From an uncultured Chitinophagaceae bacterium (GTDB lineage: Bacteria; Bacteroidota; Ignavibacteria; UBA10030; UBA8401): DNA of 64,000 nucleotides. Below, in pieces: positions 1-25,759 of this stretch. The notes beneath the pieces were generated by a model. That model did not search any database and was not told where the DNA came from. It worked only from the letters and a program-made list of their open reading frames with translations. The stretch spans positions 2,721 through 66,720 of the forward strand of contig CAZRWF010000005.1 in NCBI GenBank assembly GCA_964603685.1, in the 5' to 3' direction. A program made the position numbers and the translations under genes. The first letter of the stretch is position 1. Each line of letters begins with the position of its first letter.

Positions 1-333
1 GGTAAAGACCCCGTTTTTTCCGGGAATTGTTTTCACCTGAACCGCGGACATGATCGACGGGGCTGCTGTTTCATAATTGAACATGTGCGCATCCTGCTCC
101 ATGATCACTTCATCACCCATTTCCGTGTGCGCTTTTAAGGCCAATTGATTGCTCATACAACCGCTCGGAACGAACAGCGCTTTTTCCTTCCCCAATAGTT
201 CCGCAACCGTTTCCTGCAGAGCATTCACGGTCGGGTCCTCGCCAAACACATCGTCACCGACCTCGGCATTTGCCATCGCTTCCCTCATGGCTTTAGAGGG
301 ACGCGTCACCGTATCACTTCGAAGATCGATCAT
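1..333 (-). CDS. ltaE: Low-specificity L-threonine aldolase, N-terminal part (3' end lies beyond position 1)
   Basis: Not in the ORF track because it runs off the window edge. My own translation of the reverse strand from the ATG at 333-331 gives [76 protein letters not shown]... This is the conserved N-terminus of PLP-dependent threonine aldolases. Confidence 0.8.
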
Positions 334-344
334 TCGGGCAACTC

Positions 345-1970
345 TCACTTTCGTAAAAAACGATATACTGTTGAAATGAATATAAATACAACGGACATCA
401 TCATGCAAATTCTCGCGAACCAATCTCCGTTTCTTGAATAGAACGTCGAATAGGTCAACGGTTGAATTGTTCGTTGCCGGAAATCTTGCGTGTACATTTC
501 TGTTTGGTCAAACATTCTGCCCATCGGATCGATGAATGATGATATTCCGCCATTGGCGCAGCGAACCACCCACCGGCGGTTTTCGATTGCCCGAAGAACC
601 GCAAACTGGTTATGTTGTCTCGCCCCGGAAGTGTTTCCCCACCAGCTGTCATTGGTGATAAATACTAAAAATTCCGCTCCTTTATTCACAAACGAAGCAA
701 CAAACTCAGGAAAAATCGACTCGTAACAGACCATTGCCAAAAATTTAGATGCCGGAGAAATCGTCCCGAACACAACCGAATCTTTTGCCAAACCCCAATT
801 ACTGATCCCCACCCCCCATCGCAACGGTTCGATCAAAAAGGGGACCTGATCCGCATAGGGTATTCTTTCGGCAAAGGGGACCAATCGCATTTTGCTGTAT
901 GTTTGTATATCAGGTCTGTGTGGTTCTATAAAAAAAATCGAATTAAATGAATCGTACCGTAAGGTGGTCCCTTTCACAACACTGGCAGTGGGAGGAGCAT
1001 TATCCGGTTCATAATACTGGACTTTCACGTAACCGGAAATGAGAGAAATGTTGGCACTGTCAAAAAAAGAACGGAATTGCTGCATCTCAGAATAATACGC
1101 GGGCAAATTTAATAAGATGGCCGATTCCGGAAGTACAACAAGATCGAGAGAATCATTAAGATTGGAGCGAATAAGTTGTTGATATTGTTGAACTTGAGCC
1201 CACCTTCCTGCAAATGTATTTCCCCCTTCCCATTTTTTCCATGGATCAACATTGGGTTGAACAATTCCGACGGATATGGGCTGACGGTCGGACGAAACGA
1301 TCTCTTGTTCATTGGGTTGATAAAAATTCGGTAAAATGTATAAAATGGCAGAACTCGCGGCGAGCGTAATACTTTGTCGTCGTGGAGCACCGGAAAATGT
1401 ATTTTTTACCGTCCAATAGATCAGTACATTCATCATCAACACCCAGAATGAGACGCCGTACACTCCGGTGAGATCGACAAACTGGATCTTTTCCAGGTGA
1501 TATGTTTGCGTGTTTCCCATATGCAGCCACGGGAATGCCAATTCACCCAGCGCATACAACCACTCCATAGAAACCCACAGAAACGGCATTAAAAGAGCTG
1601 CCGCCGGGAAGTTCAACTTCCTTTTGATCCAGAAATAGACCAAACACGGCAGAGTCAATACCAGAGGTTCCCAAAAAAACAATGCGATGCCGGCGATCAT
1701 TAAATACGGGTCCTGCATGTGTGTGAAACCGCCCACCCAGTACAACGCCAACAAGGAAAAAACAAAAAACATACCGTACGTATAGTGGAAGTATCTGCTC
1801 CACGATGTCAGTGCATCTGCAAGCAGAAGAAACGGTACGAATGCAATACACGCGATGACACCGACTGTAAAGGGAGGGAATGAAAGAGCAAGCAGTACTG
1901 CTCCGCTCAAGCAAAGCATCAGAAGAAACTGCCTCCGAGGTTCAAGCGTAATTGATGATTGGACAGTCAC
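345..1970 (-). CDS. lnt: Apolipoprotein N-acyltransferase
   Basis: 541 aa. Multi-pass membrane N-terminus followed by a CN-hydrolase domain with the E/K/C triad contexts [18 protein letters not shown] and CYESIFPEF. Confidence 0.85.
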
Positions 1971-2548
1971 TTGGTCCTCAATTGTTGAAATCGTTTCTCT
2001 AAATGCGGTGAAGCTTTTTTCCAGATCGCAACAATACTCAATCCGATGAGAAGACCAAGGATGGAGCCGGCGGCAATGTCAGAAGGATAGTGAACACCAA
2101 CGTATGGCCGCGATAATGCCACAATACCGGCAAAGCCATACCAATACCATCGTTGGGCACGAAAGAACTGAGCAATAACAGCTGCAGCGGCAAAATTATT
2201 CACCGCGTGTGACGATGGAAACGACAATCCCCCGCCGCAATCGACGAGCATGCGGACGCCATCCAAAGCTCTGCATGGTCGAACTCGGCCGAATATGTCC
2301 TTAAGAAACGAACTGTTCAATTGATCGCTGAAAAACACCGTCACAATGACCAGTCCGAGGGCAATTCGACCGTTTTTTCCCCCCTTCCAAATCACGAAAA
2401 CGACGAAACACAGGACAAAAATCCTTACGGCGGTAAACTTATTCAGGTCCGTTAACACCGGAAGCACCAGATCAAACACCGGATTGGCGAGCGATTGATT
2501 GATGAAAAAGAAAAGTGCTACGTCGATCGAATAGAAAAATTCAATCAT
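1967..2548 (-). CDS. PAP2-family polyprenyl/lipid pyrophosphate phosphatase
   Basis: 193 aa membrane protein with the three PAP2 motifs: KDIFGRVRP, FPSSHA and SRPYVGVHYPSD. Overlaps lnt by 4 nt and DedA by 8 nt. Confidence 0.8.
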   Translation of the reverse strand: MIEFFYSIDVALFFFINQSLANPVFDLVLPVLTDLNKFTAVRIFVLCFVVFVIWKGGKNGRIALGLVIVTVFFSDQLNSSFLKDIFGRVRPCRALDGVRMLVDCGGGLSFPSSHAVNNFAAAAVIAQFFRAQRWYWYGFAGIVALSRPYVGVHYPSDIAAGSILGLLIGLSIVAIWKKASPHLEKRFQQLRTK

Positions 2549-3149
2549 TCTTCTTTTCCCGCTTACGATACCAGAGAAATAATCCGATCAACGCGCCAGT
2601 AATGATAAGAACTGTAACGATTTGACTGTATGCAGATAAATAAAATCCTATTGCTTCCCAATTTTCTCCCAGCAGGGTGCCGGCATAAATCAAGATGCCG
2701 TTCCATAACAATGCACTGAGGAAACAAAGTATTGCCGTCGGAATAAACTTTACTTCCGCCATACCCGCAAAAAATCCAACCACTGCTCTGGTCCCTGAGA
2801 GGAATCGATTGACGATAATCAGCCAATATCCGTAACGTCGGAACCACTCCTCCACCTTATGTACCGAATCCAGCGGTAAAAATTTTAACTTACCTTGTTC
2901 GATAATCCGAAGCCCGAACCAATCTCCGATCTTATACATCGTCATAAACCCCGTTGTACTCCCGAATGTGGCGATGGTCAAGGCGAGAAGAAAGTCGATG
3001 TGTCCGATCCCTACCAGGTATCCCCCGGCAACGATCATAACATCACTCGGGGATGGAGGAAACAAATTTTCAATGTACGCGATTACAAAAATGGCGAGAT
3101 ACACCCAGGCAGGACTTAACTGTTCCAGATATAAAATTGTCGCTTCCAT
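2541..3149 (-). CDS. DedA/SNARE-associated family membrane protein
   Basis: 202 aa polytopic protein with the DedA signature region IIVNRFLSGTRAVVGFFAGMA. Abuts ispF with no gap. Confidence 0.8.
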   Translation of the reverse strand: MEATILYLEQLSPAWVYLAIFVIAYIENLFPPSPSDVMIVAGGYLVGIGHIDFLLALTIATFGSTTGFMTMYKIGDWFGLRIIEQGKLKFLPLDSVHKVEEWFRRYGYWLIIVNRFLSGTRAVVGFFAGMAEVKFIPTAILCFLSALLWNGILIYAGTLLGENWEAIGFYLSAYSQIVTVLIITGALIGLFLWYRKREKKND

Positions 3150-3635
3150 TTACGATATTTTTATTTCATTGATCGTTGCAACCGCATATGCCACAGCTCC
3201 TTCGCCGACGCCGATAAAACCCATTCCTTCATTTGTCGTTGCTTTTACGGAGACGGCATGAATGCTCACACCGAGAATTTCTGCGATGGTCGTTCGCATT
3301 TGATCGACGTACGGAGCGATCTTCGGCCGTTCCATGACGACCGTTGTATCGATATTTCCGACTGCGTATCCCTTTGATCGCAATAATGCGACAACATTTG
3401 CCAGCAGATTGCGGCTGGAAATTCCCTTAAATGCGGGATCGGTGTCGGGAAAATGTTTACCGATATCTCCCATCGCAGCCGCTCCCAATAAGGCATCACA
3501 TATTGCATGCAGGAGAACGTCGGCGTCCGAATGCCCCAGTAGTCCGGACTCAAACGGTATTTCCACGCCACCCAGGATCAATTTCCTTTCCCGGGCAAAT
3601 CGATGAACATCAAATCCCATTCCGATTCGGGTCAT
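3150..3635 (-). CDS. ispF: 2-C-methyl-D-erythritol 2,4-cyclodiphosphate synthase
   Basis: Motifs GMGFDVHRF and [12 protein letters not shown] use the internal start [11 protein letters not shown] (3635) because the longest ORF (to 3689) would overlap the upstream acylphosphatase by 53 nt. Confidence 0.9.
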
Positions 3636-3636
3636 A

Positions 3637-3915
3637 TTACGCTTTGATCTTAAAGTTGAAAAAAAGATGATGCGGTGGTCCCCACTCAACGATTACGTTC
3701 TCTACGTTGGACATTTTGGGTCCGACCCTGAGCTCATGAATCAACAGTTCAATATCCGACCGCTTTCCCTCCACTTCCAGGTACACGGATCCGTCGGGCA
3801 GATTTTCCACGAACCCTTTCATCGCGTACTTTCGGGCGGCACGATCGGCGAACCACCGGTAGCCAACGCCTTGAACGATTCCGGAAACGGTGATCTTCGC
3901 GTTCGCGTCGTTCAT
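3637..3915 (-). CDS. acyP: Acylphosphatase
   Basis: 92 aa with the classical signature [13 protein letters not shown]. Confidence 0.85.
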
Positions 3916-4796
3916 TCTCGCTCCTGTGACCAGCCGGCCCTTACCAGTAGATTGTCCATAAATTCCGAAATTAATATCCCGACGATGATCAATCCAGCCC
4001 CGACAATTCCCATGAACCCCAATTGTTCGCTCAAGACATAATATGCCAAGACGGCGGCGATAACCGGTTCCAAAGTGAAGATGATCACCGCCCTAGTCGG
4101 CGTCGTATCCTGCTGAAATCTCGTTTGCATATATGTGGTGACGATGGTGGCACATGTTCCCATATATAACAACGAGACGATTAATTGGGTCGTCGGCTGG
4201 AATACGATGGTCTCAAAAGGGAGCACCGCGGCCGCCGTAAGTGTCGTAACCGTTACTTGAACGAATGAAAGATGCAGCACGGTCTCACCTTTGGTGTACA
4301 GATCAATGTAGACGATATACACCCCGAAGATCACCGCTGAAAGCAACACCAACAAATCTCCGCGATTGATCTCGGAACCGTCCGGGGAGGTCAATAAGAA
4401 CAGGCCGGCGGTGACGATGATGATCCCGGCAATATTTCCGATTCGCGGAAGCCGTCGCTCGAGTATAAACTGGGCGATCGGAGTAAAAATAACCATCAAT
4501 CCCGTTATAAAAGCGGATTTGGATGCCGTTGTTTGATAGATACCGTGATTTTGGATCACGATCCCGACTCCCAGCATCGCACCGAGGATTAATCCCTTTT
4601 TTATCGTCACACGCGAGATCGATCCCAACTGTCGAATGAGAAAGAGACCGAGCAGCAATGCGCCGATGCCGAAACGGGCGGCGATAAACAGCGACGGTGA
4701 TACTTCCGCCTCGCCTGCTTTGACGACAACAAACGTGCTCCCCCAAATGAACGTGGTGGCAAATAACGCCAACTCCGCCCTTCCGCGTACAGTCAT
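3912..4796 (-). CDS. EamA/DMT-superfamily transporter (about 10 TM segments)
   Basis: 294 aa with two hydrophobic half-repeats typical of EamA domains. Shares 4-nt overlaps with both neighbours. Confidence 0.75.
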   Translation of the reverse strand: MTVRGRAELALFATTFIWGSTFVVVKAGEAEVSPSLFIAARFGIGALLLGLFLIRQLGSISRVTIKKGLILGAMLGVGIVIQNHGIYQTTASKSAFITGLMVIFTPIAQFILERRLPRIGNIAGIIIVTAGLFLLTSPDGSEINRGDLLVLLSAVIFGVYIVYIDLYTKGETVLHLSFVQVTVTTLTAAAVLPFETIVFQPTTQLIVSLLYMGTCATIVTTYMQTRFQQDTTPTRAVIIFTLEPVIAAVLAYYVLSEQLGFMGIVGAGLIIVGILISEFMDNLLVRAGWSQERE

Positions 4797-5527
4797 TTGA
4801 GGTCCAATTTTTTAATGATCGATTCCGGAATGGATTTGAACACCGCCATGATGATCCGCCAGAACCATTTCGAATAGATAAAATCCTTCCCTGCTTGCTG
4901 CGCGCGGAAGATATCGCGTGCCACCTCTTCAGCGCTGGCGGTGATGATTCCCGGCGTGTTGCGTCCTTCGATCATTTTCGTGCGGATAAATCCCGGATGA
5001 ACGGTCAACACCTGCACGCGGGAAGGATACAACCGGTTCCGCAGCCCGGAGAGGAATGTTGTCATTCCCGCTTTCGCACTCGCGTACACATAGTTGCTCT
5101 TACGTCCCTTTTCCCCCGCTACGGAACTGACTCCGACGATAAACCCTTCCCTCCTCGCTTCAAAGTCGGCGGCAATGATATGCAGCATAGAGACCAATCC
5201 GGTAAAATTCGCCGTCAACACGTTGTTGGCGGCCGCAAAATCCTGTTCGGATTTTTTTTGTTCACCCAACGTTCCCGCGAGGCAGATGACACCAAACGGT
5301 TTTTCCGGCAGGGAGTCATAGAATGATTGATGGTCGGACGTTTCCGTCGCGTCGAATCGATATGCCGTTGCCGGAACGGAAAATCGAATGGAAATGTCGT
5401 TGGCATCGTTTTTCAAACGTTGGACACTACGGCTGGCAAGATATATTCCGTATCCGGCTTTCGCATATAAAAAGGCCAACGGCCGAGCGATATCCGATCC
5501 TGCGCCGATGATTAAGACATACTTCAT
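4793..5527 (-). CDS. Short-chain dehydrogenase/reductase, DprE2-like (decaprenylphospho-2-keto-ribose reductase family)
   Basis: 244 aa. Rossmann N-terminus IIGAGSDIA, an SS...Y..SK catalytic context (VSSVAGEKGRKSNYVYASAKAG) and a C-terminal WFWRIIMAVFKSIPESIIKKL tail. From memory, this resembles M. tuberculosis Rv3791. Confidence 0.75.
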   Translation of the reverse strand: MKYVLIIGAGSDIARPLAFLYAKAGYGIYLASRSVQRLKNDANDISIRFSVPATAYRFDATETSDHQSFYDSLPEKPFGVICLAGTLGEQKKSEQDFAAANNVLTANFTGLVSMLHIIAADFEARREGFIVGVSSVAGEKGRKSNYVYASAKAGMTTFLSGLRNRLYPSRVQVLTVHPGFIRTKMIEGRNTPGIITASAEEVARDIFRAQQAGKDFIYSKWFWRIIMAVFKSIPESIIKKLDLK

Positions 5528-6840
5528 GACAATCCTATCCGTTTCGACTGTAACGATTGAAAAATGGATCGTGGATCATATTTTTTTTTGATCTGCTTAA
5601 ATCGATCGGCCTGCACATAACCCTTCGCGAAAGTCTCTTTTTTCATCCGCACATCTTTGGACAAATAAATTTTTCCGCCGAACTCGGTCACCATTTCATC
5701 GAGCACGGGAAATAACGCCAACGTTTTCGGCGTGATCGGAAAATCCAGTGCCAGCGTGTATCCTTCTTCGGGAAAAGAGACGATCCCTTCCTGAACTCCA
5801 AACAGTTTGAGCACGGCCAAAAACGAACCTTCTCCCGATGAAGAAATCGTTGAAAGGATTTTTTTCAAACCGACGCGGGACCGATCTTTCGGAAGAACGA
5901 ATTGATATTGCGTAAATCCTCGTCTGCCGTAAATCCTGTTCCAGTGTGCCGCTATGTCCAAAGGGTAAAAAAACGGTTCGTAATCCACAATCGAGTCGCC
6001 CGAAATATACGTCCGAAAGCGAATTTCATTGAATAATTTGACCGTCAGAGAATTGAGTGCAAAATCCGGGAAAAAGAGCGGAACCGGAATCATCGGCCGT
6101 CGATCGATCGACAGCGGATCACGATATCGGTATCCGACTTCATCTTTGGTGGCATGTTCGCCGAGCACCAACGCTGACCGGCCGAGATGTTCACCTCTTG
6201 CGAGGCAATCGATCCACGCAACGGAATAGGTCCATCGTGCATTTTCTTCGAAGGCATCGAAGGCCGCATCGATATTTTTTGCTTTTACAACTCTTTGACG
6301 GATGTATGCGGTTTCAATTTTTTGCAGCGAAAATGTCGCCTGAAGAATAATCCCGGTGAGCCCCATTCCGCCGCAGGTGGACCAAAACAAATCCGCATGT
6401 TCGGTGCGTGAACACCGGAGGACGGAACCGTCTGCCAGCAGAAGATCGAGAGAAAGGAGATGCCGGGAAAATGAACCGGCCACATGGTGATTTTTTCCAT
6501 GAACATCCGAGGCAATCGCCCCTCCCACCGTGACGAATTTTGTTCCGGGTGTCACCGGAAGAAACCATCCGCGCGGTACGAAAATCTCCAACAATTCCGC
6601 CAACGACACTCCTGCTTCACACGTTATTGTGCCGTTTGTTTCATCGAAAGAGAGGAGATGATTCATCCGCACCATCGAAACAATCGTCGTGTTCAGGGAG
6701 GAATCGCCGTAACATCGTCCGAGCCCTCGGGCAATCAACTCGTCACCGACGGAAACGATCTGTTTCACATCGTCGACGGTCGAAGGAGAGTGCACAGTAG
6801 CATCGATGACGGGATAATTTCCCCAATTCGTCACTTTCAT
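5524..6840 (-). CDS. FAD-dependent oxidase, DprE1-like (polyprenyl-phospho-ribose 2'-oxidase family)
   Basis: 438 aa. Blocks VTVGGAIASDVHGKNHHVAGSF, LFWSTCGGMGLTGIIL, FFYPLDIAAHWNRIYGRRGFTQYQFVLP, SFLAVLKLFG and EFGGKIYLSKD line up with M. tuberculosis DprE1 as I remember it. Confidence 0.8.
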   Translation of the reverse strand: MKVTNWGNYPVIDATVHSPSTVDDVKQIVSVGDELIARGLGRCYGDSSLNTTIVSMVRMNHLLSFDETNGTITCEAGVSLAELLEIFVPRGWFLPVTPGTKFVTVGGAIASDVHGKNHHVAGSFSRHLLSLDLLLADGSVLRCSRTEHADLFWSTCGGMGLTGIILQATFSLQKIETAYIRQRVVKAKNIDAAFDAFEENARWTYSVAWIDCLARGEHLGRSALVLGEHATKDEVGYRYRDPLSIDRRPMIPVPLFFPDFALNSLTVKLFNEIRFRTYISGDSIVDYEPFFYPLDIAAHWNRIYGRRGFTQYQFVLPKDRSRVGLKKILSTISSSGEGSFLAVLKLFGVQEGIVSFPEEGYTLALDFPITPKTLALFPVLDEMVTEFGGKIYLSKDVRMKKETFAKGYVQADRFKQIKKKYDPRSIFQSLQSKRIGLS

Positions 6841-6912
6841 ATCGGAAAATACAAAAAGAATCGCTGTTAATGAAGCAGATTTTTGACACTGCCGCCGTAC
6901 GGATCACGGCGG

Positions 6913-8136
6913 TCAGTGGGTCGGTTTTTCTTTCGGAGGTGCGGAGGTAAAAAAGTCGCGGTAAAATCGTTCCGTGTAGGATTGTAATAACTGTTCGATC
7001 CGTTCCTGCTGCGGAGACCGGACGACGAGACCGGCATGATACTCTTTCCGAATCTTCCAGCAGATTTCCGGATCGTTATAACCCGAAAGGTCGGGCCATT
7101 GTTGTTTCGCGAGCGATACCATCAGTCCCGCGTACTCTTCCCGTTCAATCTTCGGCGAATATCGGGAAATATCATCGCATGTCTCGAGACGCGCCCATTC
7201 CGCCCACAGGTTCATGCCGGTCGCACCTTCGATCAATTCCACGATGTGTGCGCCGCCGACGCGCGCCGACGTCTCGAGGAAAAAATATTTGCCGTCGCCC
7301 GCTGCTTTGATATATTCCGTGTGCGATACTCCTTGCAACAATCCCAACATCGGCAGCACCGACGCATTTAATTGTTTCAATCCTTGTTCATCGCTGCTCC
7401 CCCGTTTCACCGTCCGGGTCATAAAGACGCGTCCTTCATGCGATACTTCCATCGGCGGAAGTCCGTATTTACTGACGATGGAAAAGCGGACATTTTTATT
7501 GACCAAAATGCTGTCCACATGAAATATTTCGCCAGGGATGAACTTTTCCAGAAGATAATAGGATTGTTGATCTCCGAGTTCAGCGATCTTTTGCCACAGT
7601 TCTTCCGCGGAGTGGATCTTTTTGATCCCGATCGCACCGGCAGAAAGACGGGGTTTCAACACATACGGCGGTTGAACCTTTTTCAGAAAATCATTGATGC
7701 GGTCGTAATTCAAAATGCCCACAAAGTCCGGAACGTTGATGCCCGCCTCTTTCGCTTTCATCCGCATGGCGAGTTTGTCCCGGAAATACCGTGCCGTCGT
7801 TTCCCCCATTCCGCCGATCCGCAAATGTTCGCGGAGTGTCGCCGCCTTTTCCACGTCAAAATCATCCAACGCAACGATCCGGTCGATCTGTTCCGTCCTT
7901 GCCAGATAACTGACGCCGCTGATCACATCCGGCATATGCCATTCTTTATTGACATCCGGAATATAATAAATGGCATCGATCACTTCTCTCGGCCAATCCC
8001 CCCCCTCAAGACTTTTGGAGGTCAATAACAACACTTTCCATCCTTCCCGTTTCGCCTGTCGGAGGAATTCCTGACCTTTTTCATAACTGGAGATACACAA
8101 AATTGTGTTGGGCATATAGAGACTCTCTTTGGTCAA
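6913..8136 (-). CDS. ATP-grasp domain carboxylate-amine ligase (substrate unknown)
   Basis: 407 aa with pre-ATP-grasp plus ATP-grasp organisation (YVLKPRLSAGAIGIKKI, LLEKFIPGEIFHVDS, FFLETSARVGGAHI). No signal peptide. Abuts the M14 gene with no gap. Confidence 0.7.
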   Translation of the reverse strand: MTKESLYMPNTILCISSYEKGQEFLRQAKREGWKVLLLTSKSLEGGDWPREVIDAIYYIPDVNKEWHMPDVISGVSYLARTEQIDRIVALDDFDVEKAATLREHLRIGGMGETTARYFRDKLAMRMKAKEAGINVPDFVGILNYDRINDFLKKVQPPYVLKPRLSAGAIGIKKIHSAEELWQKIAELGDQQSYYLLEKFIPGEIFHVDSILVNKNVRFSIVSKYGLPPMEVSHEGRVFMTRTVKRGSSDEQGLKQLNASVLPMLGLLQGVSHTEYIKAAGDGKYFFLETSARVGGAHIVELIEGATGMNLWAEWARLETCDDISRYSPKIEREEYAGLMVSLAKQQWPDLSGYNDPEICWKIRKEYHAGLVVRSPQQERIEQLLQSYTERFYRDFFTSAPPKEKPTH

Positions 8137-9813
8137 TTAGACGATACGGTAAATCGGATATTTCCGTTCGTGGATATCAAAATACGGCGATCTCCGGTAA
8201 AAAAAATCCAACCGCGCATCGGGATCGTTGCGGAAACGTTCCTCATGCAGACGTTCGGCAAATTCCTTTTGAAGGGCCGCATCGCCGGAGAGCATTTGCT
8301 GTGCAATCGGTTCCATCACATACGCTTCGGCATACTCTTTCCGTTCAAAGAATGCATTAAAATATCCCCAGCTGATGAACGAATCCGGTCCCTCCGGTTC
8401 CAGTAGATTGGCAATCACCCGATTTGTCCGTTGATTCATCGAAATGTAAAATGTCCCGGGCGGAAAATCCATCGTTGTCCGTTCAACGGAACATCGCACT
8501 TCGACGCAATAGCGTCCTTCATACGGTTTTGATGCAAATGCTGCGTCGGTAAATCGATACTCTTCCACGGTCACAATTTTCTTTTTGGTCAGTTGTTTTA
8601 CCTCAACGCCGTGCAACCGCAATGTTTCTACCAACGCGCGGAACTGCATTGGAATAACATATCCTTTCGGCAGTGTGACTTGCTTGGTGATCACAGAACG
8701 GTTGAAATACGGAATCGTCACATCCTTCGGCGTCGTTCCATAGCGGATAACAGTTCCGCCGGTAATAGAACTTGCTTCATAATGAGAATCTAAACCTTTG
8801 AAAACAAACGGTTCAGAATGGTCGCTTAATTCAAACTTTAGCGGCAGTGTTGTGAGTTTTTTCGCTCTTTCATCTGCTTGCCGGTTCATTTTTTTAAGGA
8901 GTGTCCGATGTTGAGAAAGATACTCCAACGTCGCTGAATTCATCGCCAGAGTGGAATACACTCTGTTGTGAAAAGGTTTGAGTGAATGTGTTTCCACCAG
9001 CAGGCCAAGCCTGTTTTGAACGGCCATATATCCGGTCGAGAGACGGGGGATCGCCGGTGTATCGACAATACCGCTTTCGATCGTTCCACTCTTAAAAACG
9101 ATATATGGGGCGGTCAAAAACCCTTGTTTTTCCACAGCGTTCACCATGAAAGGAATAAACTGATCGCTTCCCCACCAGCCGAGGGACTGATCGATATTAT
9201 CCCCTTTTTCCAGGGCATAGGAAATATGGTATCGATAATCCGCGCCGTTGGTGGTATGATTATCAATGAAAAAGTCGGGTCTCCAGGATTCAATCAGAGC
9301 AATTACAGAACGGATCTCGGGGGTTTCCGCTTTAAGATAATCGCGGTTGAGATTCAAGTTCCAGCTGTTTGTTCGCCACCCCATCTCCGCCGGTCCGTTT
9401 TGATTCGGACGGTTGAACGGGCTGATCCGTTCATGGCCGTCCACGCTCAGGACCGGAATGACCAGCAGGATGAGATTGTCCAGCAAATGAAACTTTTCTT
9501 TGGTGACCAGGATTTCCCGCAGCAGGAGCATCGACGCGTCTTTTCCTTCGATCTCCCCGGCGTGAATGCCGTTTTGGATCAATACAACGGCTTTGCCGCT
9601 CCGACGCGCCTTTGCCGGAGTAAATTCATTTCGGGAAGCAACAACAAGGCACTCGATCGACCGTCCTTGCGGAGAGGTTCCGATCGAAAACATTTTCGCA
9701 TGCGGAGTTCGTTGTTCGAATTTACGGAAGTAAGCGATCGATTCGTCGTATCGCGGTGAGTGTGTCCCGTCCGACCGTTCGAATGCCGTCGTCCAAAAGG
9801 CGGTTCGTTTCAT
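8137..9813 (-). CDS. M14-family zinc carboxypeptidase, apparently cytosolic
   Basis: Zinc and substrate motifs HAGEIEG, NLNRDY and DNHTTNG. I use the start MKRTAFW (9813) because the longest ORF would overlap the upstream UbiA gene. No obvious signal peptide. Confidence 0.75.
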   Translation of the reverse strand: MKRTAFWTTAFERSDGTHSPRYDESIAYFRKFEQRTPHAKMFSIGTSPQGRSIECLVVASRNEFTPAKARRSGKAVVLIQNGIHAGEIEGKDASMLLLREILVTKEKFHLLDNLILLVIPVLSVDGHERISPFNRPNQNGPAEMGWRTNSWNLNLNRDYLKAETPEIRSVIALIESWRPDFFIDNHTTNGADYRYHISYALEKGDNIDQSLGWWGSDQFIPFMVNAVEKQGFLTAPYIVFKSGTIESGIVDTPAIPRLSTGYMAVQNRLGLLVETHSLKPFHNRVYSTLAMNSATLEYLSQHRTLLKKMNRQADERAKKLTTLPLKFELSDHSEPFVFKGLDSHYEASSITGGTVIRYGTTPKDVTIPYFNRSVITKQVTLPKGYVIPMQFRALVETLRLHGVEVKQLTKKKIVTVEEYRFTDAAFASKPYEGRYCVEVRCSVERTTMDFPPGTFYISMNQRTNRVIANLLEPEGPDSFISWGYFNAFFERKEYAEAYVMEPIAQQMLSGDAALQKEFAERLHEERFRNDPDARLDFFYRRSPYFDIHERKYPIYRIV

Positions 9814-9815
9814 CG

Positions 9816-10688
9816 TCAAGCAAAATAGATGATGGAAATACAGGCCAGCAGCCACAACAACAGGTTTACCGCCGTCGGAATATCCTTCGTCAGAACGGCG
9901 GTCGGATTTTCCCCTTCACCACGGACGAAAACGAGAAACAGGTACCGGAAGATGCCGAACAACACAAATACTGTCGTAAAGATCAAATATTCGGAGCGGA
10001 ACATGGCGATCGTTTTTTCGGACATGGTGTACAACGAATAGGAAATGGCCATGCCTGTCGTAGTGATCAATATGATCCCGTCCAAAAATTGCACGGTGTA
10101 CGCGGTGAGCACTTTGCGTTTTGTTTCGATCTTCTCTTTTTGGATCAACACCAATTCGGCGCGCCGTTTTGATGCGGCAAGGAATAACGAAAGGAACAGC
10201 GTCGTCACGACGATCCAATGAGAAATCGACACCTGAATAGCCAACGCGCCGGCAAACACCCGCATCATAAATCCCATAGCAATGATGAACAGGTCCAAGA
10301 TGACGACATGTTTTAATACGACGGAATAACCGATTTGAAGAAGAACATAGGCCGTCACCATAAGGACAAACGACACCGGCAACATCTGCGAAATTGACAA
10401 TGCGGCGGAGAGAAGCAACAAGGCGACGGCAACGGCAGACGGAAGGGAAATTTCACCTGAAGCAACGGGGCGGTTTTTCTTCACCGGGTGAAGACGGTCC
10501 GCATCCCGGTCGAAGATATCATTGAAAACATAGACCACACTGGAGGCCAGCGAAAATGAGGCAAAGGCGAGTACGGCATTTACGACATAGTCGCGGTCCA
10601 ACAAGTGTTGAGAAAATATCAACGGCGTAAAGACGAATCCGTTCTTCAGCCATTGTTGCGGTCTGATTAGACGGAGGTACGAATTCAT
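9816..10688 (-). CDS. UbiA-family prenyl-phosphate 5-phosphoribosyltransferase (decaprenyl-phosphate phosphoribosyltransferase-like)
   Basis: 290 aa polytopic protein. N-terminal LIRPQQWLKNGFVF and the Asp-rich motif NDIFDRDADRLHPVKKNRPVASGE resemble Rv3806c-type enzymes. Confidence 0.8.
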   Translation of the reverse strand: MNSYLRLIRPQQWLKNGFVFTPLIFSQHLLDRDYVVNAVLAFASFSLASSVVYVFNDIFDRDADRLHPVKKNRPVASGEISLPSAVAVALLLLSAALSISQMLPVSFVLMVTAYVLLQIGYSVVLKHVVILDLFIIAMGFMMRVFAGALAIQVSISHWIVVTTLFLSLFLAASKRRAELVLIQKEKIETKRKVLTAYTVQFLDGIILITTTGMAISYSLYTMSEKTIAMFRSEYLIFTTVFVLFGIFRYLFLVFVRGEGENPTAVLTKDIPTAVNLLLWLLACISIIYFA

Positions 10689-11095
10689 GGCTTCTTCTTT
10701 CGTACCGGCGGGTTTTTCCGTCCAGGTGATGCCGGACGTCGGGAACGCGGTGTTGCCGGAGCCGGAACAGGATCCGCGGGGGGAACGGAACCGATCTCCA
10801 ACACGGCATCGGCGAGAAGTTTGAACCTATCTTCCATGGTATCACGAATGCGATGCCACGCATACATCACCACCATCGGGACGAGCAGCAACAAATACTC
10901 CGGCGATTGTGTGATCGGTTTCTGATAGATGAAAAAAAGCATGATATAGTAGAACATCCACAGGACCATAGTGTAAATTGCGTTCCGCCGATTATTTTCA
11001 CTCGACTTTTGATAGCGGGAAATCTCTTCCAGCAATTGTACCAAACGAATACGCGCGACTGGATCCATGTGTGTCTCCTTTTTATTCTTCGACAA
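10685..11095 (-). CDS. Hypothetical small membrane protein with a Pro/Arg/Lys-rich tail
   Basis: 136 aa with two predicted TM helices and the tail PPADPVPAPATPRSRRPASPGRKNPPVRKKKP. Overlaps UbiA by 4 nt. No recognisable family. Confidence 0.5.
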   Translation of the reverse strand: MSKNKKETHMDPVARIRLVQLLEEISRYQKSSENNRRNAIYTMVLWMFYYIMLFFIYQKPITQSPEYLLLLVPMVVMYAWHRIRDTMEDRFKLLADAVLEIGSVPPADPVPAPATPRSRRPASPGRKNPPVRKKKP

Positions 11096-11098
11096 TGT

Positions 11099-12766
11099 TC
11101 AAAAAACCGCTTGCTCCTCGTAGATTCCGAAATGTTCGACGAGGGCATTACACATCTCCCCCAGAGTGACGTAGTGTCGTGTGGCATTGAGGAAATGCGG
11201 CATCAAGTTGGATCCGTCAGCAGCCGCTTGTTTCAGAGCGCGTACGGCATCGTCACAGGCCGCTTGATTCCTGCTCTGCCGGAGATCCGCTAGGCGTTTC
11301 CGTTGGAGCACTTCCACTTCCGGTGAAATGGCAAGAATCGGAATGTCAATCTTCTCCTCTTCCTCCACATATTGATTCACGCCGACGATGATCTTCTCCT
11401 TCGTATCCAGTTCGCGCTGGTAACGATACGCCGCTTCTGCAATCTCCCGCTGGAAAAATCCTTGTTCGATTGCCGGGATGACACCGCCCAGCATTTCAAT
11501 CTTTTCAAAATATTGTTCCGCTTCCTCCTCCATCCGCGTGGTGAGTGCTTCCACAAAATAACTTCCGCCGAGCGGATCGACCACATTCGCCACACCGGTC
11601 TCATCGGCAATAATCTGCTGCGTGCGGAGAGCGATCTTCACCGCTTTATCCGATGGCAATGCCAATGTCTCATCCATGGAATTCGTATGCAGCGACTGAG
11701 TCCCCCCTAAAACACCCGCCAATGCCTGAATGGCGGTGCGAACGATGTTGTTTTCCGGCTGTTGCGCCGTTAATGTACAACCGGCCGTTTGCGTATGGAA
11801 TCGGAGAGTCCACGATTTCGGATTTTTTGCACCGTATTTATATTTCATCCGTTTCGCGTAGATTCGCCGTGCCGCTCGGAATTTGGCGATCTCTTCAAAG
11901 AAGTCGAGGTGAGAATTAAAAAAATATGAGATACGCGGAGCAAATTCATCCACATCCATTCCCGCGGCGATGCCGGCTTCGATGTAGGCAAATCCGTCGG
12001 CCAAAGTGAATGCAAGTTCCTGGACGGAGGTTGAACCGGCTTCCCGTATATGATAACCGGACACGGAGATAGGGTTAAACTGCGGAAGTTCTTTCGCGCA
12101 ATATTGAAACATATCGGTAATGATCCGCATCGACGGTTTCGGAGGATAGATCCACTCTTTCTGTGCGATGTACTCCTTTAACATGTCGTTTTGGATGGTG
12201 CCGCGCAGAACGTTGGAACGAAGTCCTTGTTTCTCGGCAACAGCAATATAAAACGCCAGGATCATCGCCGCCGGAGCATTGATGGTCATGGACGTTGTCA
12301 CCTGATCGAGCGGTATTCCTTTGAATAAGATTTCCATGTCCGCCAGCGAACTCACGGCGACACCGCAAATTCCGACCTCCCCTTCCGACAACGGATCATC
12401 GGCATCCCTCCCCATCAATGTCGGAAGATCGAATGCGGTCGAGAGTCCGGTTTGGCCGTGTTCGAGCAGATACTTGAAGCGCTGATTCGTGTCTTCCGGC
12501 GTTCCGAAGCCGGCAAATTGTCGCATCGTCCACAGCTTGCCTCGGTATCCGGATTGATGGATGCCGCGCGTATAGGGAAACTCGCCCGGAAAACCGATCT
12601 CCGACAGGTAGTTGATCTCTTTGACATCGTCCGGCGTATAGAGCATCTCCACCGGCGCTCCGCTGACCGTGGTAAATTTTACGGGACGGACTTTGGAAGA
12701 GGCGGCGGAAGATTTGTGTTTTTGTGCCGCGGCACCGATCGCTGCCGGATCGTTCACTGTTGCCAT
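11099..12766 (-). CDS. Methylmalonyl-CoA (acyl-CoA) mutase, large catalytic subunit without a B12-binding domain
   Basis: 555 aa with a strongly conserved mutase core ([39 protein letters not shown]). Ends before the cobalamin-binding domain. Confidence 0.9.
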
Positions 12767-12793
12767 GATGGTTCTCCGATATGTTTGATCGTG

Positions 12794-12827
12794 AAAAGGA
12801 ACAGCCGTGCGAATAACGGCAGGTTCC
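12794..12827 (-). terminator. Putative intrinsic terminator after the ABM gene
   Basis: On the minus strand: GGAACCUGCCGUUAUUCGCACGGCUGUUCC followed by UUUU. The stem is imperfect and the U-tract short. Confidence 0.4.
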
Positions 12828-12831
12828 GCAT

Positions 12832-13116
12832 TTATTGAACGGTGTGCACCGTCACGAGAGGATCACCCTCGATCAGTGCGATAAATTTTGGCCGAAATTC
12901 CGTATAGTGTCGGCTGCGATTATGAGCGTCGATGGAACCTTGGTCCGCCCATTCTTCATAGAAAAAAAATTGTTCCGGCCGGCGGAGATCCCGGTAAAAG
13001 CTGTACCGGATACACCCGGGCTCCTTTCGGGACGGTTCGATCATCCCGGTACAGAGAGCAATCAACTCGTTCTCAGCACCGGGACGGGAGGTGCAAAAAA
13101 CGGTAATAATTTTCAT
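12832..13116 (-). CDS. ABM-domain (antibiotic biosynthesis monooxygenase-like) protein
   Basis: 94 aa ferredoxin-like ABM pattern (CIRYSFYRD...[16 protein letters not shown]). Confidence 0.7.
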
Positions 13117-13119
13117 CGT

Positions 13120-14958
13120 TCACGTCCTGAAAAATCTCCGGTCCAGTTCCGCCAGAGAGAGTTTAATAAGCACCGGACGGCCGTGCGGACAGACGTACGG
13201 CATAGCGGTGGCGAACAATTGATCGATCAGCGAGCGCATTTCTGTTTCGCTCAGTTTCTCCCCCGCTTTGATCGCCGCTTTGCACGAAAATGACTTGGCA
13301 ATGTTGTCACGCGCATCCAATTTTACGCGCAGTTGATTGTTTTTAAATTCATCGAGAATATCCTGAAGAATGTTCGATTCCGTTCCCGCTTTCACTTCCG
13401 GCGGGACACCTTCCAGAACGAACGTATTTTTCCCGAACGGCCGCGTTTCAAATCCGATCGAATGGAGGAACGGCAGCAGTTCGGCGGTCAACGAAAAATC
13501 GCCGGCAGGAAGCTGAATGGTTTGCGGAAACAACAGCTGCTGAGACGAGGGGACGGAATTGTTCATTCTGGTCAATGCCCGTTCGTACAGAATCCGTTCA
13601 TGAGCAACGTGCTGATCGATGATCATCAATCCGGAACGGATCTGTGTCAGGATATATTTGTTGTGCAGCTGCCAGATCGCTTTCCCTTCCTGCGCTTCGC
13701 TTTCCCTTGTGCCGTGTTGCACCCGGACCGGCGTATCATCCGGCGGTGACACCGGGTGCATCGGCGAGCGTGCAAAAATCTGATCGAGCGTTGCATTCAA
13801 ATCGAACGGCACCGATTCTCCGGACAACGGCGGCGGCGAGAAACTTGCATCAATGTTTCCGGATGTCGGCACCGGCCGCGGCGCATCGGAATACAGACGG
13901 GGAAATGCCGTATGCCGCAATGAAGAAAAATCGTCCGACGGGCGTTGGAACTCCACCGTCGGCGTAATGTCGCTGTTCCCCAGCGCTTTGCGGACAACGG
14001 ACATCACGATGCGATAGATATGCTGTTCATCCGCGAATTTCACTTCCATCTTCGACGGGTGCACATTCACATCCACTTTGTGCGGATCGATTTCAATCAT
14101 CAGGAGAAAAAACGGAAAATTTCCCTTCTCGACCAAATGTTCGTAGCCGGAGAAGACCGCGTGATTGATCGAGCGACTCATGATAAATCGTTTGTTCAAA
14201 AAAACGAACTGGTCCACCTTCGATTTCCGGGCAAAGTCCGGCTTCCCGATATATCCGGAAATCGACATCAACTCCGTCGTTTCGTGCAGCGGAATCAGCG
14301 TCGCAAAATGCCGCTCGCCGAAGAGTGTTTTCAGTCGATCTTCCAGCGTTTGTGACGGGAGTGCCAGAATCGTATCGTCATCACTGACGAATTCCACGGC
14401 GATCTCCGGTTTCGACAAGACGAGCCGCTGGATCGTGTCATAGATGTGTTTAAATTCGGTGTTGTTGGATTTTAAAAATTGACGGCGGGCCGGCGTGTTG
14501 TAGAAAAGGTTTTTTACGCTGATGGTTGTCCCCACCGGATGGGCCGTTTTCGTCCGCTCTTTCACTTCGCTTCCTTCAATCCGCACCAGCGTTCCCACCG
14601 CGTCTTCGGAACGACGGGTTTTCAATTCCACCTGGGCCACAGCGGCGATGGAGGCGAGCGCTTCACCGCGGAATCCCAACGTCCGAATATTCTCCAGATC
14701 CTCATACGTTACGATCTTGCTCGTGGCGTGGCGGGCGAACGACTTGACGGCATCCTCCTCCCCCATCCCTTTCCCGTTGTCGACGAATTGGATGAGAGTT
14801 TTGCCCGCATTGGTGACGGTGATGGTGATGGACGTCGCGCCGGCATCGATGGAATTTTCGAGCAATTCTTTCACGACGGAATCGGGGCGCTGTACCACTT
14901 CTCCGGCGGCGATCTTGTTCGCGAGATGATCGGGCAATATGTTGATGACGGATGCCAT
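13120..14958 (-). CDS. mutL: DNA mismatch repair protein MutL
   Basis: GHKL ATPase N-terminus MASVINILPDHLANKIAAGEVVQRP and DNGKGM. C-terminal dimerisation/endonuclease region DQHVAHERILYE. The start is trimmed from the longest ORF (15324) to 14958, which gives a TAATG junction with the epimerase gene. Confidence 0.9.
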   Translation of the reverse strand: MASVINILPDHLANKIAAGEVVQRPDSVVKELLENSIDAGATSITITVTNAGKTLIQFVDNGKGMGEEDAVKSFARHATSKIVTYEDLENIRTLGFRGEALASIAAVAQVELKTRRSEDAVGTLVRIEGSEVKERTKTAHPVGTTISVKNLFYNTPARRQFLKSNNTEFKHIYDTIQRLVLSKPEIAVEFVSDDDTILALPSQTLEDRLKTLFGERHFATLIPLHETTELMSISGYIGKPDFARKSKVDQFVFLNKRFIMSRSINHAVFSGYEHLVEKGNFPFFLLMIEIDPHKVDVNVHPSKMEVKFADEQHIYRIVMSVVRKALGNSDITPTVEFQRPSDDFSSLRHTAFPRLYSDAPRPVPTSGNIDASFSPPPLSGESVPFDLNATLDQIFARSPMHPVSPPDDTPVRVQHGTRESEAQEGKAIWQLHNKYILTQIRSGLMIIDQHVAHERILYERALTRMNNSVPSSQQLLFPQTIQLPAGDFSLTAELLPFLHSIGFETRPFGKNTFVLEGVPPEVKAGTESNILQDILDEFKNNQLRVKLDARDNIAKSFSCKAAIKAGEKLSETEMRSLIDQLFATAMPYVCPHGRPVLIKLSLAELDRRFFRT

Positions 14959-15974
14959 TATTGCTTTAAAGTCACTCCCAGTCCCGGCTGCGTGGTTAAG
15001 GCCAATGTTCCCCGGATATTCCGCACACCGGCGAACGGATCGTTGGAGATCAACACATTGCCGTCCAGATCCGCATAATCCAACAGCGGACTGACATGAG
15101 CGCCGGCGGAGATACCGACGGCGGTTTCGATCATACATCCCATCATCACTTTCATGTTCAACGCACGCGCGGTGTTGATCATCCTCATCGCTTCGCGGAG
15201 GCCGGTACATTTCATCAACTTGATGTTGATGCCGTCGTACGCTTTGGCCAATTTCGGAATTTCGGAAAGCCGCAGTACACTTTCGTCCGCAATCAACGGC
15301 AGATCGGACTTCTCCCGCAGCCATTGGATATCGTCGAACTGTTCGGCCGGCATCGGTTGTTCGACGAATTCAACGTTTTGATCCTTTAACCATTTAATCC
15401 GCTCAAGCGCGAGGTGTTTGTCCTTCCAACCCTCGTTCGCATCAACGTACAGCACTTTGTCCGTGATCTTCCGGATCGTAGTGATCATCTCTTCGTCATT
15501 CTCCGAGCCGACCTTCACTTTCAGGATCGGATATTCTTCCGCTTCATGAACTTTTTGCTCGACCACTTCTTTGGAATCGATGGCAATGGTAAAAGAACAG
15601 GCGGCGGTTTTGGCCGGATTCAATCCCCATAATTGATACAACGGCACATGTAATTTTTTCCCGATCCAATCGTGGAGCGCAAGATCGACGGCACATTTGG
15701 CCGAGGTGTTGCCCGGCGCCGCCGCATCCACGTACGATAGGATTTCTTCCAGCTGGAACGGCGATTCGAACCTTTTCAGATCAAGGCGTTGTAAAAAAGC
15801 GGTGATCGTCTCGAGCGATTCGCCGTACCGTTTGGTGGGAGATGCTTCGCCGTAGGCGATGATGCCGTCATGTTCGAGTTCGAGGATAATCACGGGAGCG
15901 ATATCGCGGGCGCTCCGGGAAATCCGAAACGTGTGTTTGAGACGGAGATCGTATTGCTTCCAGGTCAGAGTCAT
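14958..15974 (-). CDS. Dipeptide (L-Ala-D/L-Glu-type) epimerase, enolase superfamily
   Basis: 338 aa with enolase-superfamily metal-ligand and catalytic blocks (KVKVG, YVDANEGW, FVEQP, IADES). Confidence 0.85.
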   Translation of the reverse strand: MTLTWKQYDLRLKHTFRISRSARDIAPVIILELEHDGIIAYGEASPTKRYGESLETITAFLQRLDLKRFESPFQLEEILSYVDAAAPGNTSAKCAVDLALHDWIGKKLHVPLYQLWGLNPAKTAACSFTIAIDSKEVVEQKVHEAEEYPILKVKVGSENDEEMITTIRKITDKVLYVDANEGWKDKHLALERIKWLKDQNVEFVEQPMPAEQFDDIQWLREKSDLPLIADESVLRLSEIPKLAKAYDGINIKLMKCTGLREAMRMINTARALNMKVMMGCMIETAVGISAGAHVSPLLDYADLDGNVLISNDPFAGVRNIRGTLALTTQPGLGVTLKQ

Positions 15975-16006
15975 AGCGGATTAAGAATGATGTGGCGGTC
16001 GACCGT

Positions 16007-24970: not shown

Positions 24971-25648
24971 TTAGAAGTAAATATGCAATGTTGCACCACC
25001 GGCGCTGAAGTTCAACAGGTTCATGCTGCTGGAACCCGGAGCTTTCACTGTTGCCGCACCTTGAATGGTGGTTTCGCTGTCAGCGCCGGAAACCATCTGG
25101 AGCAAGCCCAAACGATATTCAGCGGAGAGGCTGATCTCGTTGTACAGATAGAATTCTGCACCAGCGATACCTGCCAACGACAGAGAGAATCCATCAGTCG
25201 GACGGAAGTTTGTCACTTCAACTGTGGCACCGTTCGGAACGGGGCTCGGGTTGGAGGGTTTGTTGCTGGAGGAACCGAGAGCAACGCCAACGCCAGCGCC
25301 CATGTACGGTTTCACACGTGCACCGCCCATGTACATCAAATAATCGGCACCCAATGCGAGATCGAACGTGGATTGTTCAGCATCGGAGTTTCCGGTCGTT
25401 GCGGAGGGGGTGGTGGTGCTGGTCGTTCCGACCTGTAATCCCAAGCGAACTGCAGCATCGCTGCTCAAGAAATAGGTTAAACCAAGTCCGCCCATCGGAC
25501 CTGTTCCGGCAAGACCGAATGCTCCGAGTCCGCCGAAAGTAAAGTTCAATGATTTAGCGCCTGCTTGATTACCTGCCGGGGCATCCTGTGCGAGCACAAC
25601 GCCGCACATCATCACAACTGCAAGAACTACTGCCAAAAATTTTTTCAT
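24971..25648 (-). CDS. Small outer-membrane beta-barrel protein (OmpW/OmpA-barrel-like)
   Basis: 225 aa from MKKFLAVVLAVVMMCGVVLAQDA (signal peptide). Alternating amphipathic strands and a terminal ...GGATLHIYF aromatic. AAGGAG Shine-Dalgarno 8 nt upstream. The longer ORF start was rejected. Confidence 0.6.
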   Translation of the reverse strand: MKKFLAVVLAVVMMCGVVLAQDAPAGNQAGAKSLNFTFGGLGAFGLAGTGPMGGLGLTYFLSSDAAVRLGLQVGTTSTTTPSATTGNSDAEQSTFDLALGADYLMYMGGARVKPYMGAGVGVALGSSSNKPSNPSPVPNGATVEVTNFRPTDGFSLSLAGIAGAEFYLYNEISLSAEYRLGLLQMVSGADSETTIQGAATVKAPGSSSMNLLNFSAGGATLHIYF

Positions 25649-25737: not shown

Positions 25738-25759
25738 GAGTAAATAATTGAGGCAAACC

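Follow-up and report, generated by a model that had tools for sequence, protein, structure and literature searches.

D-Arabinofuranose (D-Araf) is usually regarded as a mycobacterial hallmark and a drug target. The locus described here raises the question of whether a non-actinobacterial host encodes the synthesis of a lipid-linked D-Araf donor, and which of its clustered genes belong to such a pathway. The locus lies in a 64-kb stretch of DNA from an uncultured bacterium (contig CAZRWF010000005.1), which was analyzed as a whole and is termed the window. The preliminary description of this DNA had proposed that all four enzymes of the decaprenyl-phospho-D-arabinofuranose (DPA) pathway of Mycobacterium tuberculosis, namely Rv3806c, Rv3807c, DprE1 (Rv3790) and DprE2 (Rv3791), have homologs here. 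The proposal stands for the UbiA-type transferase, the flavin oxidase and the short-chain dehydrogenase/reductase (SDR), together termed the trio; it is not supported for the PAP2 phosphatase, which matches Rv3807c over 27 residues only, lies 7 kb from UbiA and accompanies the trio in a single clade. The trio is encoded by the following open reading frames (ORFs), for which the coordinates, strand, domains, the NDIFDRDAD motif of UbiA and the 4-nt overlap of the SDR and oxidase genes had all been described correctly.

9816-10688, minus strand: UbiA, an Rv3806c-like polyprenyl-phosphate 5-phosphoribosyltransferase of the DPPRS/PPPRS family (Pfam, NCBIfam)
5524-6840, minus strand: DprE1-like FAD oxidase with an FAD_binding_4 domain (Pfam)
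4793-5527, minus strand: DprE2-like SDR (Pfam)

The UbiA protein scored 275 bits on the NCBIfam equivalog NF008977, 'decaprenyl-phosphate phosphoribosyltransferase', passing its cut-off of 234, and at most 44 bits on the NCBIfam models for heme-O synthase, UbiA and chlorophyll synthase. Its top match among solved structures was Rv3806c of M. tuberculosis (8j8j, E 1e-34), with the next prenyltransferase at E 2e-6. The NDIFDRDAD motif aligns to NDVRDVEAD of Rv3806c, and seven transmembrane (TM) segments are predicted. By these model and structure matches the protein belongs to the DPPRS/PPPRS (Rv3806c) family, and it is predicted to catalyze the committed step of the pathway.

Over its residues 2-436 the FAD oxidase gives a colinear alignment to DprE1 of M. 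tuberculosis (E 8e-91, 308 bits, 40% identity); the next-best PDB family reached 61 bits, against 35 for xylitol oxidase. The oxidase keeps Y60, H132, K134, W230, Q334, Q336 and K418 (M. tuberculosis numbering). Among these residues we take K418 to be catalytic in the mycobacterial enzyme, and H132, K134, Y60 and Q334/Q336 to complete its catalytic and FAD sites. The counterparts of K418, H132, K134, Y60 and Q334/Q336 were invariant in an alignment of 14 sequences from multiple phyla. Three positions are substituted, C387 by Ala, N385 by Thr and Y314 by Phe. Cys387 of M. tuberculosis DprE1 is the covalent attachment site of benzothiazinones, and the natural Cys387-to-Ala state predicts that the enzyme is insensitive to covalent DprE1 inhibitors of this type. 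For the SDR, the top PDB match was M. tuberculosis DprE2 with 85 bits, followed by the next SDR with 55 bits, and its YASAK motif aligns to YGSTK of DprE2. It also scored 310 bits on a generic SDR model (NCBIfam PRK07102), passing the cut-off of 267. The preliminary description had named alditol oxidases and menaquinone or heme-O prenyltransferases as families in which the proteins might fall instead; the model and structure matches place the trio in the DPPRS, DprE1 and DprE2 families and in neither of those.

The trio was found to be widespread. A protein search with the DprE1-like oxidase gave at least 8000 homologs at E <= 1e-20, with the top ones 55-81% identical. These top homologs come from metagenome-assembled genomes (MAGs) labelled Ignavibacteriales, Bacteroidota, Cyanobacteriota, Anaerolineae, Vampirovibrionia and Ectothiorhodospiraceae, and several homologs carry the JGI annotation 'decaprenylphospho-beta-D-ribofuranose 2-oxidase'. 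In a scan of one genome per species (relatives in 596 of the 600 stretches examined), DprE1 relatives were present in at least 596 species representatives from many phyla. The best 80 of these were 48-67% identical to the window protein and include Chitinophaga, Chryseobacterium, Empedobacter, Vibrio atlanticus, Pseudomonas, Azospirillum, Campylobacterales, Verrucomicrobiota, Kiritimatiellia, Nitrospirae, Cloacimonetes and Kryptoniota. In a neighbor-joining tree the non-actinobacterial DprE1-like proteins form one tight group in which phyla are intermixed, and M. tuberculosis DprE1, at 38% identity, sits on a long branch.

To assess gene neighborhoods, ORFs were called in 86 related loci, which were then searched with the window proteins. 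An SDR homolog lies within 10 kb of the DprE1 homolog in 78 of the 86 loci and a UbiA homolog in 67, an association of the trio far beyond chance. Natural fusions provide independent support for functional links between DprE1 and DprE2 and between Rv3807c and Rv3806c: DprE1-SDR fusions occur in P0112 (688 aa) and L012 (an 832-aa ORF), and a PAP2-UbiA fusion of 477 aa occurs in a Mycobacterium (P0309). A large ORF in L060 (875 aa) scored as DprE1 only. The trio is thus a conserved module that is common outside actinobacteria and already described, and the window is an ordinary new example of it. The preliminary description had known of two precedents outside actinobacteria, the noeCHOP genes (PMC5080398) and Pseudomonas Pa5196 TfpW. 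Both are real, and the rarity that they seemed to imply is contradicted by the species scan and by a published account in which the Gram-negative pathway is called 'common' (PMC11127046). Our literature search found no paper pairing 'decaprenylphosphoryl' with Ignavibacteria and, on this search, the trio has not previously been discussed in this lineage. Neither the concept nor the wide distribution is new, and precedents in Gram-negative bacteria are on record.

The published Gram-negative layout comprises a PPPRS, a phosphoribose phosphatase, a flippase and a GT-C glycosyltransferase, to which DprE1/E2 homologs are added when Araf is the sugar (Kelly et al., 2024; PMC11127046). In these three-component systems the UbiA-type PPPRS makes a polyprenyl-phospho-pentofuranose, and the DprE1/E2 homologs constitute an epimerase module for Araf glycans. 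Most relatives of the window trio conform to this layout, with a HAD phosphatase and either a GT-C or a multi-pass membrane protein nearby. When the neighbors in the 86 loci were clustered de novo into families, a HAD-family phosphatase (Pfam HAD, E 3.5e-32) was found near the trio in 45 loci, and GtrA in seven, mostly proteobacterial. Pfam searches of 64 distinct multi-TM neighbors identified PMT_2 (GT-C) in nine, Acyl_transf_3 in seven, EamA in four, Polysacc_synt in two and YfhO in one, and in two lineages a 1340-1370-aa PMT_2/DUF2298 GT-C directly follows the SDR. The occurrence of the trio with GT-C, HAD and GtrA neighbors in other lineages corresponds to the published architecture of periplasmic pentofuranosylation (PMC11127046) and thereby supports the assignment of the window trio to D-Araf donor synthesis.

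One further partner family emerged from the clustering. Its members are multi-pass membrane proteins, about 550 aa long with 7-10 TM segments, and are encoded in 34 of the 86 loci, all from Bacteroidota, either divergent from or adjoining a UbiA-DprE1-SDR-HAD cluster (for example L014:6438-8003, L016:7405-9099 and L086:4443-6086). Its FTKQDGG and W-E-G-A-Y-R motifs are invariant. It had no match in Pfam, and the family profile gave no meaningful match to PDB sequences; its assignment to GT-C by sequence was therefore dropped. We regard it as a candidate new family of arabinofuranosyltransferases. Likewise, a 575-aa multi-TM protein that takes the place of UbiA in Roseivirgaceae loci was considered as a HAD-UbiA fusion and dropped for want of a Pfam match.

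From these assignments the following mechanism is proposed. UbiA would transfer phosphoribose from phosphoribosyl pyrophosphate (PRPP) to polyprenyl phosphate, giving polyprenyl-phospho-ribose-5-phosphate, the 5'-phosphate of which would be removed by a phosphatase that is not assignable from the window. The DprE1-like flavoenzyme would then oxidize the 2'-hydroxyl of the lipid-linked ribose, and the DprE2-like SDR would reduce the keto intermediate with inverted stereochemistry to lipid-linked D-Araf. This sequence of phosphoribosyl transfer, dephosphorylation, oxidation and reduction, ending in polyprenyl-phospho-D-Araf, is well supported and quite probable. The donor would be flipped to the periplasm, possibly by the EamA transporter whose gene is translationally coupled to that of the SDR, and used there by a GT-C-type transferase encoded outside the window to modify an envelope acceptor, with DedA and PAP2 proteins recycling the carrier lipid in general. 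That the three core enzymes for the donor are encoded here, with flipping, transfer and recycling as proposed, we consider probable. The data establish the families of the three proteins, the retention of catalytic residues and the conserved proximity of the trio genes; the biochemical steps, the C55 carrier, the flippase, the phosphatase and the acceptor are inferred.

The same chemistry is predicted as in M. tuberculosis, from PRPP through lipid-phospho-ribose-5-phosphate, lipid-phospho-ribose and its 2'-keto form to lipid-phospho-Araf, and the window shares with the mycobacterial pathway the UbiA, DprE1 and DprE2 families with their motifs and catalytic residues. The systems differ in other respects. 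In the window, UbiA, oxidase and reductase belong to one gene run, whereas the dprE1 and dprE2 genes of M. tuberculosis, as we understand it, lie well apart from Rv3806c; the M. tuberculosis locus among our loci (L090) shows only glf-glfT2-Rv3807c-Rv3806c-aftB. The window host is diderm and its carrier is presumably C55 rather than C50, the window PAP2 is not an ortholog of Rv3807c, and no Emb/Aft-type GT-C lies near the window trio, while AftB abuts Rv3806c in M. tuberculosis.

Closer parallels are found in Gram-negative bacteria. In Pseudomonas aeruginosa Pa5196 (P. paraeruginosa), a DPPRS ortholog and DprE1/E2 homologs supply D-Araf for periplasmic glycosylation of pilin by the GT-C-like TfpW. 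A Pseudomonas locus (L075) contains UbiA-GtrA-DprE1-SDR together with multi-pass membrane proteins, and its DprE1 is 52% identical to that of the window; no pilin, TfpW-like or GtrA gene lies near the window trio. In the noeCHOP (noeCNHOP) genes of Azorhizobium and Rhizobium, noeC, noeH and noeO represent three of the four steps of DPA synthesis, and deletion of noeN in Rhizobium merely reduces arabinosylation, so that this phosphatase step is either not essential or in part redundant (PMC5080398). This fits a window in which the phosphatase is unassigned. The noe operon is symbiosis-specific and has its own transferase, noeP; the window genes are chromosomal, conserved in their clade and without a transferase. 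Compared with the systems of Kelly et al. (2024), the window lacks a HAD-type phosphoribose phosphatase, a MATE or GtrA flippase and a GT-C, and its genes are embedded in a housekeeping block rather than an O-antigen locus.

Several observations weigh against the synthesis of a D-Araf donor by these genes. The oxidase falls below the NCBIfam DprE1 cut-off (NF053785; 455.6 versus 500 bits) and the SDR below that of the DprE2 equivalog (NF053786; 157 versus 250 bits), both cut-offs having been trained on actinobacteria; the curated NCBI name for a score such as that of the oxidase is only 'FAD-binding oxidoreductase', as on NCBI-named homologs. No GT-C, HAD phosphatase, GtrA or MATE gene was found in the 64-kb window, so that use of the donor is a prediction. 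The search comprised Pfam on large ORFs, hidden Markov models of the HAD, GtrA and ~550-aa families against six-frame ORFs, and phmmer with 91 multi-TM neighbors; the sole match from the profile and phmmer searches was the apolipoprotein N-acyltransferase Lnt. The preliminary description had also seen no GT-C, and this holds across all 64 kb; trio relatives elsewhere adjoin GT-C glycosyltransferases. A related locus, L087 (ENA ERZ25039540 contig_8090, 4.2 Mb), has no DprE1 or DprE2 gene at the site of the block, while the UbiA, EamA and PAP2 genes are retained there. Finally, EamA is tied to the pathway by a synteny seen in one clade only, and a 52%-identical EamA homolog occurs in a Nitrospiria contig in unrelated context.

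The next question is which of the genes around the trio belong to the pathway. Along the direction of transcription the order is MutL, ABM, methylmalonyl-CoA mutase (MCM), a 136-aa ORF, UbiA, M14, ATP-grasp, FAD oxidase, SDR, EamA, acylphosphatase, IspF, DedA, PAP2 and Lnt, with the following features in addition to the trio.

10685-11095, minus strand: orphan ORF of 136 aa
8137-9855, minus strand: M14 carboxypeptidase (Pfam)
6913-8136, minus strand: ATP-grasp protein (Pfam)
3912-4796, minus strand: EamA/DMT transporter with two EamA domains (Pfam)
3637-3915, minus strand: acylphosphatase, AcyP (Pfam)
3150-3689, minus strand: ORF of IspF/YgbB, the 2-C-methyl-D-erythritol 2,4-cyclodiphosphate (MEcPP) synthase (YgbB, E 3e-69), with a likely start at Met19 near 3635
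2541-3149, minus strand: DedA protein with a VTT domain (Pfam)
1967-2548, minus strand: PAP2 lipid phosphatase (Pfam)
345-1970, minus strand: Lnt

Synteny with MAGs that carry the labels Ignavibacteriales or Bacteroidota (L001, L002, L007, L008 and L088) extends over the entire block, from MutL to Lnt, and the window also encodes OmpA, FadL-like and beta-barrel outer-membrane proteins in addition to Lnt. The host is thus non-actinobacterial, as the preliminary description had held for the context of the genes, and it is diderm and Ignavibacteria-like. All large ORFs of the window lie on the minus strand, and with such an extreme strand bias a shared orientation is uninformative on operon membership. 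A search of positions 1-16000 for sigma-70 promoters and intrinsic terminators gave no signal, with counts equal to those of shuffled controls, and is likewise uninformative on operon boundaries.

The strongest alternative is the full model of the preliminary description, in which the trio shares a single dedicated operon with PAP2, EamA, DedA and ispF. In this model PAP2 would be the Rv3807c-equivalent 5'-phosphatase, EamA the donor flippase, DedA a dedicated recycler of the carrier and ispF a boost to lipid supply. The genes from DprE1 through SDR, EamA, AcyP, IspF, DedA and PAP2 to Lnt do form a tightly packed run, in which adjacent genes share 4-8 nt or lie 0-1 nt apart; 4-nt overlaps join the DprE1-like and SDR genes and the SDR and EamA genes, and DedA and PAP2 overlap by 8 nt. 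Their common strand, as noted, carries no information. The co-occurrence data argue against the model: PAP2, DedA, IspF, AcyP, EamA and Lnt lie near DprE1 in few of the 86 loci (3-6 for each gene), and all of these belong to one Ignavibacteria-like clade. Moreover, L087 keeps MCM-UbiA and EamA-AcyP-IspF-PAP2-Lnt (UbiA 54% and PAP2 50% identical to the window proteins) without DprE1 and DprE2 and also without DedA, and between its UbiA and EamA genes (L087:4162-8894) encodes MsrP/MsrQ-like Oxidored_molyb/Ferric_reduct proteins and a DUF362 protein. L087 might make lipid-linked ribofuranose rather than arabinofuranose, or its epimerase genes might have been relocated in the genome. From this clade-restricted co-occurrence and the persistence of the block without DprE1/DprE2 it follows that the interleaved genes constitute a conserved housekeeping block: ispF (which is kept with or without DprE1/DprE2), acyP and lnt are housekeeping neighbors, and the trio is embedded in conserved synteny rather than in a dedicated operon. 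The roles of DedA, EamA and ispF as pathway partners were accordingly not upheld.

The case of PAP2 was considered separately, since mycobacteria also use a PAP2 enzyme for the phosphatase step and the PAP2-UbiA fusion mentioned above occurs there. The true Rv3807c was taken from the M. tuberculosis contig L090, where the order is glf-glfT2-PAP2-UbiA-aftB and PAP2 directly abuts UbiA; in the window the two genes are separated by 7.3 kb and seven genes. Pairwise BLASTP of the window PAP2 against Rv3807c aligned only 27 residues, around catalytic motif C3 (E 1e-7). The catalytic motifs of the window protein are intact: KDIFGRVRP (KX6RP), PSSH (PSxH) and SRPYVGVHYPSD (SRX5HX3D). Basic residues are concentrated in short loops (KGGKNGR and RAQRW) and in the C-terminal tail, on the side opposite to the motifs, so that by the positive-inside rule the motifs are predicted to face the periplasm, the canonical PAP2 topology as in PgpB and LpxE. 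The 5'-phosphorylated intermediate, in contrast, arises from cytosolic PRPP. The best structural matches of PAP2 were PgpB/YodM and LpxE, and its best curated matches the undecaprenyl-diphosphate phosphatases SepP and YbjG. No dedicated model for the phosphatase of the phosphoribosyl intermediate matched either the window PAP2 or Rv3807c in NCBIfam (E up to 10); both proteins weakly match the same undecaprenyl-diphosphatase models, and curated models therefore fail to separate them. PAP2 occurs near the trio in four of the 86 loci, all of one clade.

The overlap of the PAP2 and DedA genes has a published counterpart. Many natural DedA-PAP2 fusions are reported and are read as an undecaprenyl-diphosphate (C55-PP) phosphatase joined to an undecaprenyl-phosphate (C55-P) translocase (Sit et al.; PMC9876793), a known signature of carrier recycling. 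The best NCBIfam matches of the window DedA were models of the undecaprenyl-phosphate transporter UptA, at 81-82 bits and under the cut-offs. The gene overlap and the reported fusions lead us to read the pair as most likely serving general carrier-lipid recycling, with DedA a probable, UptA-like polyprenyl-phosphate translocase that is not pathway-specific. PAP2 is more likely a periplasm-facing phosphatase of C55-PP (or of lipid A or phosphatidylglycerophosphate) than an Rv3807c equivalent, and its action as the 5'-phosphatase can be suggested only tentatively. By returning C55-P, such a pair would nevertheless be of use to any arabinosyl transfer in the periplasm.

EamA is predicted to have 10 TM segments and adjoins the SDR throughout the clade. 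Of dedicated MATE-, GtrA- or SMR-type flippases, the window contains no GtrA or MATE; the coupling of an EamA/DMT gene to the SDR is found in one clade only. The vacancy of the HAD phosphatase and GtrA roles in the window speaks for an involvement of PAP2 and EamA, as does the comparison with a related Ignavibacteria locus (L025), which has GtrA and HAD, while the window clade is without GtrA and has EamA in the position of HAD. In two Chitinophagaceae loci a Pfam-confirmed EamA also lies close to the multi-pass membrane gene adjoining UbiA. As a recurrent partner of the trio EamA was judged weak, since these are two loci only, the identity to the window EamA is 29% over 139 residues and EamA is a very common family. 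EamA may be put forward as a possible candidate flippase for the lipid-linked pentose, although we would not expect it to be one, and the dedicated operon as a whole appears doubtful.

In the better of the two remaining explanations, the DprE1/DprE2-like pair has a different specificity in this Gram-negative clade: the trio would yield some lipid-linked pentose that is not D-Araf, or its substrate would not be a polyprenyl compound. The 38-40% identity to M. tuberculosis DprE1 on its long separate branch, the scores under the curated equivalog cut-offs and the differences near the active site at N385, C387 and Y314 would agree with it, and pentofuranose systems are known to diversify via different epimerases (PMC11127046). 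The catalytic K418, H132, K134 and Y60 are kept, however, and in many phyla the oxidase is tightly coupled to a DprE2-like reductase and a DPPRS-type UbiA. In addition, Araf-containing glycans of Gram-negative bacteria correlate with DprE1/E2 homologs (PMC11127046), and Nod factors receive D-Araf through noeC, noeH and noeO (PMC5080398). This explanation is improbable. That the adjacency is a relic of a pathway now inactive or decaying in the host, as the lack of a nearby transferase, the lack of DprE1/DprE2 at the site in L087 and the two-gene insertion between UbiA and DprE1 might indicate, is more improbable still, because the three ORFs are intact, of full length and with catalytic residues kept, and their 65-81% identity to many homologs in the clade indicates purifying selection.

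Synthesis of a D-Araf donor by the trio is therefore retained, and it leads to the prediction that an uncultured Ignavibacteria-like bacterium places D-Araf on its envelope; by the distribution of the trio, the prediction extends to hundreds of species in phyla such as Bacteroidota, Proteobacteria, Verrucomicrobiota and Chloroflexota. Since the general principle has been published before, the window adds one more example and no new concept. The clade-specific EamA and PAP2 are candidates for the poorly defined flippase and phosphatase steps. A bolder proposal, which we think rather unlikely, is that D-Araf synthesis in this clade is a constitutive, core-genome envelope pathway in which PAP2 and the 10-TM EamA/DMT protein replace the HAD phosphatase and GtrA, and for which the acceptor might be, for example, lipid A/lipopolysaccharide or the giant DUF11 proteins described below. 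If true, this would be the first description in the Bacteroidota/Ignavibacteria group of a D-Araf glycoconjugate and of a full-length lipid-sugar flippase of the EamA type.

Three ORFs of the block had been left unmentioned in the preliminary description, those of the ATP-grasp protein, the M14 protein and the 136-aa product. The top structure for ATP-grasp was an L-amino-acid (dipeptide) ligase (4wd3, 75 bits). The M14 protein (558-572 aa) has candidate zinc and catalytic residues HxxE, H and E and no obvious signal peptide. Among syntenic relatives only L001 (GCA_016182545.1) shares the pair with the window, and in L002, L008 and L088 UbiA directly abuts DprE1; the pair is treated as an unrelated insertion between UbiA and DprE1, outside the pathway. 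The 136-aa ORF occupies the 411-nt gap between the methylmalonyl-CoA mutase gene and UbiA, which abut without it in relatives. One or two segments of its product are hydrophobic and the C-terminal tail is rich in Pro, Arg and Lys; no match in Pfam or NCBIfam and no homolog among the 86 loci was found. The ORF may encode a small membrane protein specific to the lineage, or may be no gene at all.

A row of very large surface-type proteins (1579, 557, 560, 361, 3368, 1045 and at least 577 aa) is encoded at 39685-63976 on the minus strand, with DUF11 repeats, SdrD_B, fn3 and Big_1 domains and one C-terminal OmpA domain. No glycosyltransferase was found inside this locus. The link to the trio, on which the preliminary description had speculated, found no evidence: the surface locus lies 29 kb off, behind the genes for threonyl- and phenylalanyl-tRNA synthetases, RNase Y, CoaE and other housekeeping functions. 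At 24971-28303 on the minus strand, with housekeeping genes on either side, three adjoining genes encode an outer-membrane beta-barrel protein, a FadL/TodX-like protein and a CsgG/FlgT/LpoB-like lipoprotein. Upstream of the trio, the MutL ORF (13120-15324, 734 aa, minus strand) shares about 370 nt with the MR_MLE gene (14958-15974) that precedes it; because MutL of relatives has 604-612 aa, its true start is probably near 14950.

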